Source of the DNA: Bulleidia sp.
GTDB lineage: Bacteria; Bacillota; Clostridia; Lachnospirales; Lachnospiraceae
Direction: 5' to 3'
Assembly: GCA_963640245.1 (NCBI GenBank)
Contig: CAVHYN010000042.1
Coordinates: 4,102-68,101 of the forward strand
Length of the DNA stretch: 64,000 nt
The position numbers were made by a program, and so were the translations under genes. Each line of letters begins with the position of its first letter. Within the stretch, counting starts at the first letter, position 1. The notes below the pieces were generated by a model. That model had not been told where the DNA came from. It made no database searches and was given only the letters and a program-made list of their open reading frames with translations. Shown piece after piece: positions 13,600-19,762 of the stretch.

Positions 13600-13950
13600 T
13601 CAAGAATCCGTCACTTCGATCTCCTTGATCAGAAATTCATTGCCCCGGCGCAGGTAGGTATGCTCGCTGCCGCAGTGGGGGCAGATCTTTCCATGAGCCA
13701 CGGTGGGATATTCCCGTTCGCAGTCCTCACAGAAGGTGACCGCGTCGATCTGTTCGATCTTCAGCTCGGCCTCCTCCATCACCGCTTCTTTTTTCCTGGC
13801 CCAGTTCCAGCAGTCGATGAGGTACTCGGGAATGATTCCCGATACCTCACCGATCTGTAGGGTTACTGCAGAGACCTTTTTGACATCATTCTCGTCCGCG
13901 ACCTTTTTGACGTCGCGGACGACATAGAATACGACTCCGAGTTCGTGCAT
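13600..13950 (-). CDS. hypA: Nickel metallochaperone HypA
   Basis: N-terminal MHE Ni motif; CEDC...CPHC zinc finger; GNEF.IKEIEV C-terminus. Confidence 0.92.
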   Translation of the reverse strand: MHELGVVFYVVRDVKKVADENDVKKVSAVTLQIGEVSGIIPEYLIDCWNWARKKEAVMEEAELKIEQIDAVTFCEDCEREYPTVAHGKICPHCGSEHTYLRRGNEFLIKEIEVTDS

Positions 13951-13952
13951 AA

Positions 13953-16760
13953 TTATTTTTCCTTATTTGTGATGATCTTCACCGCGCGCTTCAGCTGGTA
14001 CGGGATGATATGCTTAAACTTATCCTCCGCCTTCACCATCGTCGAGCACTCCGGATGATCGCGGTGCAGGGTAATCGCGTCGAATTCGCACTTGGTGGTG
14101 CAGACACCGCAGCCGATACACTTATTCTCATCTACGATCGTTGCGCCGCAGCCAAGGCATCTCGCAGTCTCTTTGCGTACCTGCTCCTCGGTCAGGGTCA
14201 GGTGTGCGTCCTTGAAGGATTTGGACGGCAATGTCTCGTCCATGCCCTCGATCTGGCGAGAAGAATTGTCGTAGCTCTCCACAGAGATATTGCTCTTATC
14301 CAGCTCGTTGAACTCCCAGCGGTTCCGTCCGATGGTCATATGGCCGTTGTGGACATAGCGGTGCAGGGACTCTGCCGCATAGTGTCCTGCTGCGATGGCA
14401 TCGATGGCGAATTTCGGTCCTGTATACACATCGCCGCCTACGAAGATATCCGGCTGCCCGGTCTGGTAGGTCAGCTTGTCTGCCACGATGGCCGGGCCGT
14501 TGAAGGTGACATTCTCGCCCTCCAGCATATTACCCCAGACGCTTCTCTGGCCGACTGCGAAGATTACACGGTCACAGGAGATCTCGATGGTCTCATTTTC
14601 ATCATAGGTCGGTGCAAAGCGGCCTTCTGCATTCTTCACGGAGGTACACTTCTTAAAGATAATTCCAGTCACCTTACCATTCTCGGTCAGAACTTCCTTC
14701 GGTCCCCAGCCATTCTGAATCTTCACGCCGTCCTCGCCTGCCTCGCGTACCTCGTCGTCTGCCGCCGGCATCTCTGCTGCGGACTCAAGGCAAAGCATAT
14801 GAACCTCTGCCGCTCCGCTTCTTGCACTGACTCTCGCCGCGTCGATCGCTACGTTTCCGCCGCCTACGACTACGACTCTTCCGGTATAAGAGGTCTTACC
14901 GGTATTGGCCTCATGCAGATACTCGAGGGCTGTGATGGTGCCCTCCGCGTCATCGCCCGGCACGCCGGGTCTGCGGCCTGCGCTGCAGCCGATGGCGATA
15001 TAGAAGGCCTTGTAGCCCTGCTCGCGAAGCTCTTTTAAGGTCACGTCCTTGCCGACTTCTACGCCGGTCTTGATCTCCACGCCCATCTCTCGCATCACGT
15101 CGATTTCTGCCGCGATGACGTCCTTTTCCAGCTTATAGGAAGGAATTCCATAGCGGAGCATACCGCCCGGCTCCTCATTTTTCTCAAATACGGTGGGGCG
15201 ATAGCCTTTCTCTGCCAGATAGAAGGCTGCGCTCATGCCTGCCGGGCCGCCGCCGATGATGGCAATCTTCTCCGGAAAATGATCCATGTGGATACTGGCC
15301 GGGATGATTACAGGCGGGATATAGCGGGTCTCCGCCTTCAGATCCTGCTCTGCGATAAACTTCTTTACTGCATCGATCGCTACAGCCTGGTCGATGGTGC
15401 CTCTGGTGCAGGCATCCTCGCAGCGGCGGTTACAGATGCGTCCGCAGACTGCCGGGAACGGATTCTGCTTCTTAATCAGAGCCAGTGCCTCCCGGTATTT
15501 TCCCTGGGAAGCCTTCTTTAAGTAGCCTTGAACAGCGATATGTGCCGGACAGGCGGTCTTACAGGGAGCGGTACCGGACTTGTGGCTGTTGATACGGTTA
15601 TTGTCACGGTAATCGGGATCCCATTTGTCCTTGCCCCATTTTACTGCATCCGGAAGCTGCTGCTTCGGATACTTCACCTCGGTGCCGTCCTTCTGACAGA
15701 GTTTCTGACCAAGGCGGGTAGCACCTGCCGGGCAGTACTCCACGCAGCGTCCACAGGCCACGCACTTGTCCTTGTCCACGTGTGCCACGTATGCGGAACG
15801 GGACATGTTCGGGGTGTTAAAAAGCTGTGAGGTTCGCAGTGCGTTACAGATATTCACATTGCAGTTGCAGATACCGAAAATCTTGTTATCACCGTCGATG
15901 TTCGTGATCTGGTGTACGAAGCCGTTGTCCTCGGCACGCTTTAAGATGGCCATGGCCTCCTCGTAGGTGATGTCATGACCCTTGCCGGTCTCGCGGCAGT
16001 AGTCCGCGAAGTCGCCGACACCGATACACCAGCCGAAATCGTCATCTGCCACGCCCTCACCGATCACCTTGCGGGACGCACGGCAGGAGCAGCGGCCTAC
16101 GCCGATATGTCCTTCATATTTCTTCAGCCAGTAGGACAGATGCTCGATGTCCATGGACTGATTTTCCATAGAAATAGCCTTCTCTACCGGAATGACATGC
16201 ATGCCGACGCCGGCGCCTCCGGGCGGTACCATCTGGGTGATTCCGGCCAGCGGAATGAAGGTCATGCGCTCGAAGAAGGATGCCACGTCCGGATGATCGC
16301 GAAGACGCGGATTGCTTCTGTCCGGCAGCTCCTCCATGTTGAACAGCTCTGCAGATCCCGGCACAAACATAGGCAGGATGTATCGGCGCTCGGTAGGCTC
16401 GTGAGTGCGGCCGTTGTGGTCATAGTGGTAGCCGTAATCGTACTCCAGAAGGCCGATATAGCTCATCTCATCCAGCAGTTTCTGAAATTTTTCTTCGCCC
16501 TCTTTCGAAATTTTGTTCAGCTTGCACAGCTCGGAGAAGGTGTAGGGTACACGCTTTTTCATCGATAAGCCGACCTCTGCCATCTCCTCGGTAATGATTT
16601 CTGCTAGACCCCAGTACTCCGGATCCTCCACCTTTACGCCGCCGATGATATGTCCGGCTACGTCGGTAATTTTTCGTCCCAGCTTAATGATTTTCTCGCT
16701 GGGGGCTTTGTCATTTTTGTGGTTTGCGAGCCACTGGTTGTATTGTTCCATGTCAAACAT
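13953..16760 (-). CDS. Large Fe-S flavoprotein: Cys-rich N-domain, ferredoxin, GltD/NfnB-like FAD/NAD(P) domain, C-terminal ferredoxin
   Basis: CSCR...C...CNC...C; CVACGRCVEYCP; APCKTACP, CGRIC...CEDAC; GGGPAG; GGGNVA; CIGCGVCTTKC; AAGGAG RBS before ATG 16760. Confidence 0.85.
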   Translation of the reverse strand: MFDMEQYNQWLANHKNDKAPSEKIIKLGRKITDVAGHIIGGVKVEDPEYWGLAEIITEEMAEVGLSMKKRVPYTFSELCKLNKISKEGEEKFQKLLDEMSYIGLLEYDYGYHYDHNGRTHEPTERRYILPMFVPGSAELFNMEELPDRSNPRLRDHPDVASFFERMTFIPLAGITQMVPPGGAGVGMHVIPVEKAISMENQSMDIEHLSYWLKKYEGHIGVGRCSCRASRKVIGEGVADDDFGWCIGVGDFADYCRETGKGHDITYEEAMAILKRAEDNGFVHQITNIDGDNKIFGICNCNVNICNALRTSQLFNTPNMSRSAYVAHVDKDKCVACGRCVEYCPAGATRLGQKLCQKDGTEVKYPKQQLPDAVKWGKDKWDPDYRDNNRINSHKSGTAPCKTACPAHIAVQGYLKKASQGKYREALALIKKQNPFPAVCGRICNRRCEDACTRGTIDQAVAIDAVKKFIAEQDLKAETRYIPPVIIPASIHMDHFPEKIAIIGGGPAGMSAAFYLAEKGYRPTVFEKNEEPGGMLRYGIPSYKLEKDVIAAEIDVMREMGVEIKTGVEVGKDVTLKELREQGYKAFYIAIGCSAGRRPGVPGDDAEGTITALEYLHEANTGKTSYTGRVVVVGGGNVAIDAARVSARSGAAEVHMLCLESAAEMPAADDEVREAGEDGVKIQNGWGPKEVLTENGKVTGIIFKKCTSVKNAEGRFAPTYDENETIEISCDRVIFAVGQRSVWGNMLEGENVTFNGPAIVADKLTYQTGQPDIFVGGDVYTGPKFAIDAIAAGHYAAESLHRYVHNGHMTIGRNRWEFNELDKSNISVESYDNSSRQIEGMDETLPSKSFKDAHLTLTEEQVRKETARCLGCGATIVDENKCIGCGVCTTKCEFDAITLHRDHPECSTMVKAEDKFKHIIPYQLKRAVKIITNKEK

Positions 16761-16836
16761 AGGGTTTCTCTCCTTTTTAATCGTATAACTCAAGCTTCCG
16801 TTGCGAATTTGTTGGCGTCGTTTCAAACCTCTTAAA

Positions 16837-17538
16837 CTAGTGCATATCCACGGGGCAGCTGTACAGTTTCGCTCTCCATGCTTCTGCCTCCTTCACAATC
16901 CAGTCAGCCAGCGCATCTACGCCCTCACCGGTCTTTGCGGAAATGTAGAGGATCTTGATATCCGGGTTTCGAAGCTTCGCATTCGCCTCCAATTTTTCTT
17001 TGCTGAAATCGAAATACGGCATGACATCCGTCTTATTCACTACCAGCAAATCGCATTTTTCATACATCAGCGGATACTTGAGCGGCTTGTCGTCACCCTC
17101 CGGCACGGATAAGATTGTTATATTTTTCACAGCTCCCGTGTCAAATTCCGCCGGACAGACCAGATTTCCCACATTTTCCAGAATCACCAACTCTGCATCG
17201 TCGAGACCGAACTCGTAAAGCCCCTGTCTCGTCATATCCGCGTCCAGGTGGCACATGCCGCCGGTATGGATCTGGATGGATTTTACTCCCGCTTTTGTCA
17301 TCGTCTCGGCATCCACTGCCGAATCAATGTCAGCCTCCATGACACCCATTTTTATGCGGCCTTCCAGAGCTTTCGCCAATGCCAGCAAAGTCGTGGTTTT
17401 ACCGGATCCCGGAGAGGACATCAGATTCAGAAGGAATACCTTTTTCTCCTTCAGCTCCTGCCGTAGCCTGTCCGCGTCCGCATCATTATCCGCGAAGATA
17501 CTTCTCTTCACTTCTATAATCCGAATCTTATCTTCCAT
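16837..17538 (-). CDS. hypB: Nickel incorporation GTPase HypB
   Basis: SSPGSGKTT, CHLD, ENVGNLVCP, EGDDKPLKYP and NKTD motifs. Confidence 0.93.
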   Translation of the reverse strand: MEDKIRIIEVKRSIFADNDADADRLRQELKEKKVFLLNLMSSPGSGKTTTLLALAKALEGRIKMGVMEADIDSAVDAETMTKAGVKSIQIHTGGMCHLDADMTRQGLYEFGLDDAELVILENVGNLVCPAEFDTGAVKNITILSVPEGDDKPLKYPLMYEKCDLLVVNKTDVMPYFDFSKEKLEANAKLRNPDIKILYISAKTGEGVDALADWIVKEAEAWRAKLYSCPVDMH

Positions 17539-17640
17539 AACAGTTCTCTCCCTCTTATTGATCGTATATTGTTATTTTCTAACATTATTACACATTTGTA
17601 AAGTACTTATTGCCAAAAAAATCACAATCAAAAATATTTA

Positions 17641-17670
17641 TTGACACTTCCTTTTCTCATCTGCTATCAT
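17641..17670 (+). promoter_or_regulatory. SigA-type promoter for the riboswitch/antiporter transcript
   Basis: TTGACA-18nt-TATCAT with TG extension. Confidence 0.65.
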
Positions 17671-17687
17671 AATTCAAGCATAAAAAA

Positions 17688-17787
17688 GTATTCCGTGAGG
17701 GAGTAGTTTGCACGAAAGTGTGGTTTGTCAACAACCCCGGTGTCTGTGGCACCTGGCAAACCTTAAAAAATGAGACTCATGTATACC
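17688..17787 (+). ncRNA. yybP-ykoY manganese riboswitch
   Basis: GTGAG-GGAGTAG ... GTCAACA ... TGAGACTCAT consensus blocks; P1 GTGAG/CTCAT; overlaps a terminator; upstream of a cation transporter. Confidence 0.8.
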
Positions 17788-17822
17788 ATTCTTTTTGAGA
17801 AGGGTATATAGGAGTCTTTTTT
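17774..17822 (+). terminator. Riboswitch-coupled terminator
   Basis: GACTC-ATGTATACC...GGTATATA-GGAGTC followed by a T-run; shares its 5' arm with the aptamer 3' strand. Confidence 0.7.
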
Positions 17823-17863
17823 ATGTAATACGATTCCGATTACATTTCCAAGGAGGATTTCTT

Positions 17864-18835
17864 ATGAACACATTTTTACAGAGCGTACCCTTCGCTGTGA
17901 TACTGCTCATCATCGGCTTCTGTTTTCTGATCAAGGGTGCTGATGCCTTTGTAGAGGGCAGCAGCAGCATCGCCAAGCATTTCCATGTACCGTCTTTGAT
18001 CATCGGCATGACCATCGTAGCGATGGGAACCAGTCTTCCGGAGACGGCTGTCAGTGTCACTGCTGCCATCGCAGGCAGCAATGCCCTCGCCGTCAGCAAT
18101 GCCATCGGCTCCAATATTTTCAACCTGATGATTGTCATCGGTGTCTGTGCCGTTCTGACGCCTGTAGCTGTGCAGAAGAGCTCCCTCATCGCCGACATTC
18201 CCTTTTCCGTCGTCTGTGCCCTGCTTCTCCTTATCCTGGGTCACGACCGCATGACGCTGACCAGGGGCAATGGCTTGTTCCTGATCCTTCTTTTCGCCTG
18301 CTTTATCGTTTACATGATTCGCTCTGCAAAGCATTCCATGAATCAGGAAGAAACGGAGCTTGCCTCCGAAGCAGAGGAATACAAGGTCATGTCCGTTCCG
18401 AAGAGTCTTCTGTACATTGTACTTGGCATCGCTGCCATCACCTTTGGCAGTGACTGGGTCGTAGACGGTGCTACTACGGTCGCTTCTGCCTTCGGTCTCA
18501 GCGAGAATCTCATCGGCCTTACCATCGTTGCCTGCGGCACCAGCCTGCCGGAGCTTACGACCTCCGTCGTAGCTGCCCGGAAAAATGAGGTAGACATGGC
18601 TCTCGGAAATGCCGTGGGCTCAAATATTTTCAATATTCTGATGGTACTGGGCATCGCTTCGGCCTTAAGCCCCATCGCCTTTATCGGAGAAAACATCATC
18701 GATATCATCATTCTTGTAGTTTTCACCTTCATCGTCTGGCTGATGGCCTGGACAAAGCATCAGCTTAGCAAGATCGAAGGCTGGTTTATGATCGGACTGT
18801 ATGTCGGATATCTCATTTATATCTGCATCCGATAG
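17864..18835 (+). CDS. Ca2+/Na+ antiporter (YrbG/CaCA family)
   Basis: Two alpha repeats GTSLPE and GSNIFN; AAGGAGG RBS. Confidence 0.92.
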   Translation: MNTFLQSVPFAVILLIIGFCFLIKGADAFVEGSSSIAKHFHVPSLIIGMTIVAMGTSLPETAVSVTAAIAGSNALAVSNAIGSNIFNLMIVIGVCAVLTPVAVQKSSLIADIPFSVVCALLLLILGHDRMTLTRGNGLFLILLFACFIVYMIRSAKHSMNQEETELASEAEEYKVMSVPKSLLYIVLGIAAITFGSDWVVDGATTVASAFGLSENLIGLTIVACGTSLPELTTSVVAARKNEVDMALGNAVGSNIFNILMVLGIASALSPIAFIGENIIDIIILVVFTFIVWLMAWTKHQLSKIEGWFMIGLYVGYLIYICIR

Positions 18836-18856: not shown

Positions 18857-19762
18857 TTAATAATTCGTGATCAGGACTTCCTTTCCTGTCCGTTTGTTCG
18901 CATCCCGGTTAATCATGCGCTTTACATCCAATGCCTGTATGTGATATCCGTCGTACAGCGAACGTACCAGCGGAACATCATTGTTTGACAACATAACCTT
19001 CGCGCCCAGGCCGTCCAAACGCCGAAATAAGGCGGCCAGGCGCTGATGGTCTTCCAGACCAAACCCTCGCTTTGCATAATCCGTAAAGGACGCCGTCGCA
19101 CTTTCCGGAACATAGGGGCTGTCAAAATATACAAAGTCCCCTTCTTTGACCCCATTGCAGGCTTTTTCAAAATCCATACAGGTAATCGTGATATCTGCTT
19201 TTTGCAGATAGGCGGAAATCGCCCGGATATTGTTTTCGTCGATGGATTTTCCGTTGACCCTGTTATTATACGGAACATTGAACAGGCCTTTGCTATTGAC
19301 GCGATACAGGCCATTAAAGCAATGCTTGTTCAGCCATATCAGCATCGCAGCGCATTCCGCATCAAGGTCACGACTTAGAATTTTCATATTGTACTGTTCC
19401 CGAATCTCATAATAGAACTCTTTCGTACAGGACGTCTCGTCCAGTTCCCTTACCTTCGCAATCACGCCTTCGGCAGCAAGCTTTAATTGCATGTAAAGAT
19501 TTACCAGCTGCTCATTTACGTCATTTACATAGGCCTGCGCAGGTGCAATGCCAAAAAGCACGGCTGCGCTGCCGAGAAACGGTTCATAGTAATGGTGATA
19601 TTCGGCAGGCATATGAGCCGCTATCTGTTCTAACAGCTGTGTTTTCCCGCCTGCCCATTTAAGAACCGGGGACATTCCTTTGAGATCTTTCTCACCCTTT
19701 AGTAGTTCGATTCTAAGGTCTGATTTGAATTTGGCACTGAAATTTCTTCTTTGTCTGGACAT
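18857..19762 (-). CDS. Dam/DpnM-type N6-adenine DNA methyltransferase with an N-terminal IS3-orfA-like peptide
   Basis: KWAGGK, EPFLG, NGLYRVN..G.FNVP, DSPY and EVLITNY motifs; the first ~27 aa look like a transposase HTH start; internal ATG at 19675. Confidence 0.85.
   Translation of the reverse strand: MSRQRRNFSAKFKSDLRIELLKGEKDLKGMSPVLKWAGGKTQLLEQIAAHMPAEYHHYYEPFLGSAAVLFGIAPAQAYVNDVNEQLVNLYMQLKLAAEGVIAKVRELDETSCTKEFYYEIREQYNMKILSRDLDAECAAMLIWLNKHCFNGLYRVNSKGLFNVPYNNRVNGKSIDENNIRAISAYLQKADITITCMDFEKACNGVKEGDFVYFDSPYVPESATASFTDYAKRGFGLEDHQRLAALFRRLDGLGAKVMLSNNDVPLVRSLYDGYHIQALDVKRMINRDANKRTGKEVLITNY

Follow-up and report, generated by a model that had tools for sequence, protein, structure and literature searches.

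A hypB-oxidoreductase-hypA locus of the IsrA family in a Bulleidia genome: the oxidoreductase as the probable client of the nickel chaperones

Identification of an IsrA-type locus

A stretch of 64,000 nucleotides from Bulleidia sp. (assembly GCA_963640245.1, contig CAVHYN010000042.1, positions 4,102 to 68,101 of the forward strand; in the following, the window) contains three adjacent minus-strand genes coding for the nickel chaperones HypB and HypA and for a large iron-sulfur flavoprotein oxidoreductase. Judged by its cysteine pattern, the oxidoreductase is a member of clade 9 of the IsrA family, and the locus represents a new member of this already published family rather than its discovery. 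We regard it as quite likely that the enzyme is the client of HypA and HypB, because HypA co-occurs with it in genomes without other nickel clients. For the wider reading of the sequence data, that hypB, the enzyme gene and hypA constitute a conserved IsrA-type unit in which HypA and HypB would deliver nickel to a six-cysteine (Cys6) site for an NADH-driven hydrogenation of C=C bonds, we see about an even chance. The locus is not a demonstrated isoprene reductase.

The three open reading frames were found as described in the original prediction, which had been made from the letters of this DNA: hypB (17538–16837) codes for a G-domain-only nickel-chaperone GTPase of 233 aa and is followed after 76 nt by the co-oriented oxidoreductase gene (16760–13953), coding for 935 aa, the ATG of which is preceded by an AAGGAG site, and after a gap of only 2 nt by hypA (13950–13600), coding for a nickel metallochaperone of 116 aa.

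In the consulted passages of Kronen et al. 2023 (PMC10134865), IsrA is described as a protein of 901 aa, which is induced by isoprene in Acetobacterium wieringae along with two HypA and HypB. No domain is assigned there to residues 1–270; four canonical clusters are listed, the first ferredoxin motif is placed at residues 289–300, and a Cys6 site with the motifs C180-x-C182 and C254-x-C256 is likened to the P-cluster and the double-cubane cluster and proposed to be entered by nickel. Genes for HypA, HypB and DUF5692 are reported for near 73%, 56% and 40% of 988 homologues, respectively. The passages of Jin et al. 2022 (PMC9765523) consulted report the up-regulation of the same protein; conjugated dienes were reduced by strain Y, whereas ethene, propene and fumarate were not. 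In the sections consulted of two Pelotomaculum preprints from 2026 (10.64898/2026.02.25.708027 and 10.64898/2026.02.19.706888), the isoprene reductase is still called putative. The original prediction had proposed an undescribed nickel-dependent oxidoreductase system; this part of it was rejected, since the family, its co-occurrence with HypA and HypB, the Cys6 site and the nickel proposal were all published in 2023 (PMC10134865).

We assigned the window enzyme to clade 9 by landmark spacing and by accessions in the published tree, not by direct alignment to IsrA (VUZ27132.1). Five cysteine landmarks follow those of IsrA at a constant offset of 44 residues (224/226, 298/300 and 333–344 versus 180/182, 254/256 and 289–300). 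Two accessions besides that of IsrA were looked up in the clade-9 tree of PMC10134865 and found in the part consulted, namely WP_105614785.1, which is identical to a homologue found by searching with the N-terminal domain (N-domain; L060), and WP_053984118.1, with which another homologue (L051) clusters at 90%. The L060 protein is 32% identical to the window enzyme (P0001) in the N-domain and 52% in the C-terminal part.

As far as the published passages go, the window enzyme and IsrA (VUZ27132.1; LNN31_08025; A. wieringae ISORED-2/strain Y) share a size of about 900 aa, an unannotated N-terminal region, a Cys6 site whose two CxC motifs are spaced by 74 residues, the domain order Fer4, Fer4_20, FAD/NAD(P), Fer4 and the neighbours HypA and HypB. 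The host of IsrA is, like this genome, devoid of a NiFe hydrogenase and contains CODH/ACS and LarA with chaperones of their own. In contrast to the putative five-gene isr operon with two hypA genes and a stand-alone N-domain ferredoxin, the locus analysed here has a single hypA, lacks such a ferredoxin and shows the order hypB-enzyme-hypA; the whole genome gave one HypA and one N-domain match. The subclade of the window enzyme is moreover tied to a module of CooC, HgdD, activase and ACS-fragment genes (see below), which is not listed in the consulted passages of PMC10134865. Because the enzyme is about 20 residues shorter than IsrA in its middle part by landmark spacing, the 26-residue insertion of IsrA (756–782) is probably absent. 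A DUF5692 gene was found in 45 of 115 related loci and is absent here.

Co-occurrence of HypA with the oxidoreductase

For 201 genomes of the order, with a completeness of 90% or more requested, we searched for the N-domain, HypA, the NiFe large subunit, CODH and Lar_N, and in 27 chosen genomes additionally for urease, the latter comprising the 26 other enzyme carriers and one further genome (G112). Matches were obtained for the N-domain in 27 genomes, HypA in 42, NiFe in 28 (weak N-terminal matches included), CODH in 26 and Lar_N in 34, and for urease in none of the 27. All 27 enzyme-bearing genomes contain HypA, 19 of them without a NiFe match and 11 without any match to NiFe, CODH, Lar_N or urease. 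NiFe was matched in 14 of the 15 genomes that contain HypA but not the enzyme, and HypA occurred only once among the 154 genomes having neither enzyme nor NiFe. It was present in one of the 20 CODH-only and none of the 22 Lar_N-only genomes, or in one of the 41 genomes with only CODH or Lar_N. Genome G112 carries HypA and HypB genes (locus L066, contig C10) without an IsrA-type or NiFe match; its CODH gene is located on another contig.

The gene neighbourhood showed the same association. The hypA gene adjoins the enzyme gene in 26 of 35 fetched copies, including three convergent cases (L046–L048), and in two further copies the enzyme gene breaks off at a contig end, its remainder lying beside hypA on another contig. 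Among the best 80 of the 472 loci confirmed in GTDB genomes (scan of 5 of 64 parts), which span Bacillota, Bacteroidota, Spirochaetota and Actinomycetota, HypA was found near the enzyme in 69, HypB in 62 and both in 58; for the 51 loci with at least 2 kb on both sides, the counts were 49 for HypA and 42 for HypB. Seven loci (L046, L067, L081, L086, L088, L097 and L098) contain two hypB copies. The conserved neighbourhood and the presence of HypA with the enzyme in 19 NiFe-free and 11 client-free genomes speak for the original idea that HypA and HypB may load metal into the N-terminal site of the enzyme, of which only the attribute "undescribed" had to be dropped.

The genome of the window itself (2.19 Mb, 97.64% complete by markers) was searched with profiles for other nickel enzymes. 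Its host, a gut-type anaerobe, probably belongs to the Lachnospiraceae, since rows of the same family are placed among named Lachnospiraceae in a gene tree. As predicted for the window, no NiFe large subunit or urease was matched, and the whole genome gave no match to either of them or to HypD (HypC, HypE and HypF were not searched); a hidden hydrogenase or urease was rejected on this basis. The predicted lack of CODH holds for the window only: CODH (TIGR01702), ACS (NF040764) and LarA (NF033504) scored above cut-off on other contigs. A second Prismane match is a hybrid cluster protein. CODH/ACS is flanked by two ATPases, both with MinD-like NCBIfam matches only, which we take to be CooC-like from their position and sequence, and LarA is accompanied by LarB, LarC1, LarC2 and a TIGR00268 (LarE-family) match. 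Judged from these neighbours, CODH/ACS and LarA each have their own maturation genes. The CODH/ACS cluster lies at a contig end (L166:229-6942, G000:C70) and comprises genes for ACS, a CooC-like protein, CODH, another CooC-like protein and a MetF-like protein.

Both chaperones are the only ones of their kind found in the genome. HypB passes model TIGR00073 with 240 bits (cut-off 121) and contains the motifs GSGKT at residue 44, C96-H97, C128 and NKxD at residue 168. HypA passes PF01155 with 111 bits (cut-off 29), scores slightly below the cut-off of TIGR00100 (80.6 versus 88.1 bits) and shows the N-terminal Met-His-Glu and two CxxC motifs. The Cys-His...Cys motif is kept in 90 of 90 HypB copies and the His-Glu after the start plus two CxxC motifs in 96 of 96 HypA copies neighbouring enzyme homologues. 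These are the same families with the same metal-binding motifs as in the maturation of NiFe hydrogenases and Helicobacter urease, whereas the genome analysed here lacks matches to the NiFe large subunit, HypD and urease. A structure prediction of the HypA-enzyme complex gave a score of 0.00 in two runs with the controls not folded, and counts neither way.

Domain structure of the oxidoreductase

The Pfam domains of the oxidoreductase are Fer4 (residues 327–347), Fer4_20 (397–475), Pyr_redox_2 (498–792) and a second Fer4 (875–901). Together with PDB alignments, they confirm the predicted architecture of a GltD/NfnB-like FAD/NAD(P) module with two ferredoxin motifs and an extra Cys/His-containing N-terminal region. 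The first ferredoxin motif CxxCxxCxxxC (PF00037; C333–C343) is encoded at 15732–15764, the GltD/NfnB/Stn-like Fer4_20 and FAD/NAD(P) module (PF14691 and PF07992, PDB alignments and Foldseek; residues 397–805) at 14346–15572, and C868 and C871 with the second ferredoxin motif C881–C891 at 14088–14159, where RCLxCG aligns with 9bov_A and 8oh5_C (all on the minus strand). From the Pfam motifs and the PDB alignment, four canonical [4Fe-4S] sites as well as FAD and NAD(P) sites are predicted. The full-length AlphaFold2 model reached a pLDDT of 90.1 and a pTM of 0.91.

The C-terminal part matches 9bov_A (E 5.7e-98) and 8oh5_C (E 9.6e-91). Compared to the structures of NfnABC, StnABC, NfnB, GltD and DsrL (PDB entries 9bov, 8oh5, 9n5u, 5jca and 2vdc), the Fer4_20 and FAD/NAD(P) core is 31–38% identical over 430–520 columns, and none of these structures covers residues 1–390 of the enzyme. 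In contrast to NfnB, GltD and DsrL, no gene for a partner subunit is present in the operon, and the enzyme scores below the family cut-offs: the best NCBIfam match, PRK12771, is below its cut-off, as are all 25 of the 130 models listed. The sequence LCLES stands at the position of YRRT in the alignment with 9bov_A and 8oh5_C. The YRR motif is linked to NADP, and because it is replaced by LCLES, we infer a preference for NADH.

The N-terminal region (residues 1–323; 15792–16760, minus strand) appears to consist of a weak winged-helix-like subdomain, followed by a cysteine domain; none of the families listed (25 of 29 in Pfam and 25 of 130 in NCBIfam) covers it. Modelled alone, the N-domain reached a pLDDT of 77.6 with weak stretches. 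This model matched only winged-helix proteins in the PDB, weakly and mostly over residues 5–150 (best Z 4.1, VIA-align), and Foldseek gave no match at E<=0.001. Fold and profile searches thus yielded a weak winged-helix likeness and ferredoxin-motif matches only, by which a new fold is not established.

The putative metal site, corresponding to "cluster V" of IsrA, is encoded at 15846–16091 (minus strand) and comprises C224, C226, C245, C298, C300 and C305 with H283, N287, N299 and R227. It contains the motifs pointed out from the sequence (C224-x-C226-R227, C245, H283 and C298-N-C300...C305), all of which are invariant in 112 of 112 aligned N-domains, together with N287, N299, R309, E138, E193 and E206. 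A seventh cysteine at position 237 is present in 95 of the 112 N-domains and replaced by valine here, and 16 of the 112 form a distinct subfamily with the additional cysteines C301 and C303 (CNCCGCxC). By analogy to the IsrA model in the consulted part of Kronen et al. 2023 (PMC10134865), the six cysteines would cluster into one site.

A five-gene module in related genomes

Four of 15 genomes of the same genus carry the enzyme gene with 77–89% DNA identity. In three of them (G206, G207 and G209), a divergent gntR gene is followed by hypB, five genes coding for a CooC-like ATPase, two PF06050 (HgdD-type) proteins, a TIGR00241 activase and a protein resembling the ACS middle domain (237–241 aa with a C-terminal CxxC-x6-C motif), then by the enzyme gene and hypA. 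G212 and the genome of the window show a short form without the module. The module is located at L149:6751-12076, L150:6430-11725 and L151:6936-12338, and also occurs in L031, L071, L077, L083, L084 and L156–L164; in L156 it stands beside a distant subfamily-B enzyme with hypA. One of the carriers, Pseudobutyrivibrio ruminis AD2017 (L083), is a cultured organism.

In a tree of 116 N-domains obtained by a quick method, the window enzyme falls into a group of 26 rows (SH-aLRT 96), of which 11 carry genes of the module in the locus itself and a further 6 at other places in the genome (17 of 26). By comparison, an HgdD pair is present in the fetched locus of only one of the other 90 rows, whose genomes were not searched, and a search of 400 genomes of the class for the larger HgdD subunit at E 1e-40 gave 4 positive genomes. 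Compared to 2-hydroxyacyl-CoA dehydratases, class I benzoyl-CoA reductases and double-cubane proteins (HadBC-HadI, BzdNO-PQ and DCCP), the congener module likewise has two PF06050 proteins and a TIGR00241 activase. It differs in that both subunits score below every specific cut-off, that a CooC-like ATPase and the ACS-fragment protein travel along, and that none of the five genes codes for a CoA-transferase; the whole module is absent from the genome analysed here.

Amino-acid-fermenting clostridia have pathways consisting of a dehydratase plus a reductase, and by this analogy the module beside the enzyme fits a C=C-reducing role. BzdV is an electron supplier in benzoyl-CoA reductase clusters, and by that analogy the module would fit an electron-supplying role. 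At L159:15110-17176, the module is followed by a gene for a 689-aa flavoenzyme of the old yellow enzyme (OYE) type, similar to BilR, BaiCD and naphthoyl-CoA reductase, in a locus with two HgdD pairs and no IsrA-type gene; this single case gives only a hint of a C=C-reducing role. In one genome, a DegV/FakB fatty-acid-binding gene lies directly 3' of the module (L162:11206-12093), a possible hint of a fatty-acid substrate.

Proposed function and alternative explanations

It is established that HypB hydrolyses GTP and hands nickel to HypA, which delivers it to the client (summarised in the consulted part of PMC10134865). In the locus analysed here, nickel would pass from HypB via HypA into the six-cysteine site of the N-terminal domain of the enzyme. 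Electrons would flow from NAD(P)H, with NADH as the preferred donor, via FAD and the four canonical [4Fe-4S] clusters to the Cys6 site, where a conjugated or activated C=C bond would be hydrogenated as acceptor. Provided that the rest of this reading holds, we lean towards an acceptor of the conjugated-diene type or with an enoyl/enoate-type C=C bond, because IsrA is induced by isoprene, strain Y reduces conjugated dienes and an OYE-type gene follows the module in L159. Isoprene itself is probably not the acceptor.

Several observations weigh against this reading. According to the passages of PMC10134865 consulted, Acetobacterium strains with clade-9 homologues do not reduce isoprene, and a stand-alone ferredoxin shares the N-domain without being associated with HypA or HypB, so the N-domain may not always need nickel. 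In the literature searched, which left out most subscription journals, neither purified IsrA nor its metal content is reported. Because this genome lacks the module (with no PF06050 match at all), DUF5692 and the gntR gene of the congeners, the locus itself gives no clue to the substrate, and the module occurs with neither an IsrA-type nor an OYE-type gene nearby in L157, L158 and L161–L164. The co-occurrence data also have their irregularities: in 6 of the 20 genomes with NiFe but without the enzyme, HypA was not matched, which indicates that the HypA profile is inexact; related genomes among the 201 are not independent; and 7 of the 35 fetched enzyme genes, not cut by a contig end, have no adjacent hypA, each being a second copy whose genome also contains a hypA-linked one.

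The most serious alternative, which we nevertheless consider rather unlikely, accepts the enzyme as the client of HypA and HypB and regards it as an NAD(P)H-linked electron supplier of the Nfn/Stn/DsrL or BzdV kind that serves a partner, for instance the HgdD pair with its activase. The closest solved relatives of its C-terminal part are indeed subunits of NfnABC and StnABC, PRK12771 is the best NCBIfam match (below cut-off), the HgdD subunit has BzdN as its best PDB match, and 17 of the 26 subclade rows have the module, either in the locus or at another place in the genome. However, a dedicated extra metal site with chaperones of its own fits catalysis better than plain electron transfer, only 1 of the 90 other rows shows the HgdD pair in its fetched locus, and IsrA responds to isoprene. 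We see a lower probability for an all-iron cluster of the P-cluster or double-cubane kind, or another metal, in the Cys6 site, with HypA and HypB delivering a metal other than nickel or only assisting assembly. Six to nine cysteines (counting C237 in 95 and C301 and C303 in 16 of 112 N-domains) would suit an Fe-S cluster, the likeness to these clusters is named in the consulted part of PMC10134865, and no CbiM-type transporter was matched in the genome (other transporter families were not searched). Against this stand the N-terminal His-Glu nickel motif kept in all 96 HypA neighbours and the Cys-His...Cys motif kept in all 90 HypB neighbours, and the other nickel enzymes encoded in the genome, because of which nickel should be available in the cell.

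Two further explanations concern the locus of this genome in particular. The triad might be a trimmed remnant of the eight-gene operon, idle or decaying, as this genome lacks the gntR of G206, G207 and G209 and the five genes that separate hypB from the enzyme gene in these congeners, and a repeat extends into the 3' end of hypB. This seems very improbable, since the three frames are intact with all motifs, at least 120 proteins are 96–97% identical over the N-domain, G212 has the same short layout, and the module is missing from most loci of the family. Least probable of all, CODH/ACS or LarA, encoded elsewhere in the genome, would be the clients of HypA and HypB, with the flavoprotein as a passenger. 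The presence of CODH, ACS and LarA above cut-off is compatible with this explanation, which is contradicted by the near absence of HypA from CODH-only and Lar_N-only genomes (1 of 20 and 0 of 22), by the 11 genomes with enzyme and HypA that lack these clients, and by the separate maturation genes of CODH/ACS and LarA.

The small number of known nickel enzyme classes might gain another in the IsrA family, a candidate that is published but unproven. What is added here is a test at genome level pointing to the enzyme as client of HypA and HypB, and the connection of one subclade to a radical-enzyme module, giving a concrete substrate class. The 11 genomes without the four other nickel clients searched represent clean hosts for a metal test. 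If the proposed function is true, the "hydrogenase maturation" labels of hypA and hypB in many gut anaerobes would be mistaken, and a gene could be assigned to a widespread C=C hydrogenation activity.

Butyrivibrio and Pseudobutyrivibrio are biohydrogenating genera of the rumen. Because these genera appear in the clade-9 tree, with Butyrivibrio (including Pseudobutyrivibrio) named 236 times in supplement 2 of PMC10134865 as consulted, the IsrA family is a candidate for the reduction of conjugated fatty acids. Within the same limits of the literature search, we found no paper tying the IsrA family to Butyrivibrio biohydrogenation, to the dehydratase module or to orphan HypA. As an extension, which we consider unlikely at present, the subclade may represent the nickel-dependent terminal reductase of an undescribed anaerobic pathway of the gut: an HgdD-type radical enzyme, activated by ATP and working with the CooC-like ATPase and the ACS-fragment protein, would make an unsaturated acyl compound, which the IsrA-type enzyme would hydrogenate at a Ni-Fe-S site. 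If true, this would mean a new nickel enzyme class with a domain without solved relative, distributed among Bacillota, Bacteroidota, Spirochaetota and Actinomycetota of gut and rumen, and the enzyme would be a candidate for those reductive steps of biohydrogenation in both habitats that have no assigned enzyme.

Sequence features around the locus

A 79-bp repeat (16794–16872) spans the 3' end of hypB and the spacer to the enzyme gene, and HypB is about 10 residues longer here than in most homologues. A second copy with 82% identity exists in the same genome (G000:C8:64-142), and short pieces were found on several contigs of G212; the repeat is possibly the end of a mobile element. Comparison of the junctions showed that it occupies the position where three congeners hold the 5.4-kb five-gene module. 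The repeat was rejected as the cause of module loss, since G212 has the short layout without it.

The GC content of the triad resembles that of its surroundings. A sigma-70-like site upstream of hypB (17574–17602, minus strand) is weak (9/12) and not above chance, with 7 such sites found versus 4.2 ± 2.2 in shuffled sequence, and no terminator-like site was found on the minus strand. An ABC-transporter lipoprotein gene downstream has its own strong sigma-70-like site (11/12). No Rfam family reached its gathering score in the window, and the region 17500–17950 gave only two chance matches. A plasmid search returned 2 records, without annotation under the match.

On the plus strand, positions 17641–17850 form the leader of a divergent Ca/Na antiporter gene (open reading frame to 18835) with a sigma-70-like site of 11/12. 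This leader is predicted to fold strongly (z -5.7), with a hairpin and U-tract at the end, and some of its words recall, in our view, the yybP-ykoY Mn riboswitch, for which Rfam gave no match. The open reading frame at 18857–19762 on the minus strand presumably codes for a Dam-type DNA adenine methylase, with a DSPY motif where DPPY is usual, and its first 27 residues appear to us to recall the start of an IS3-type transposase.

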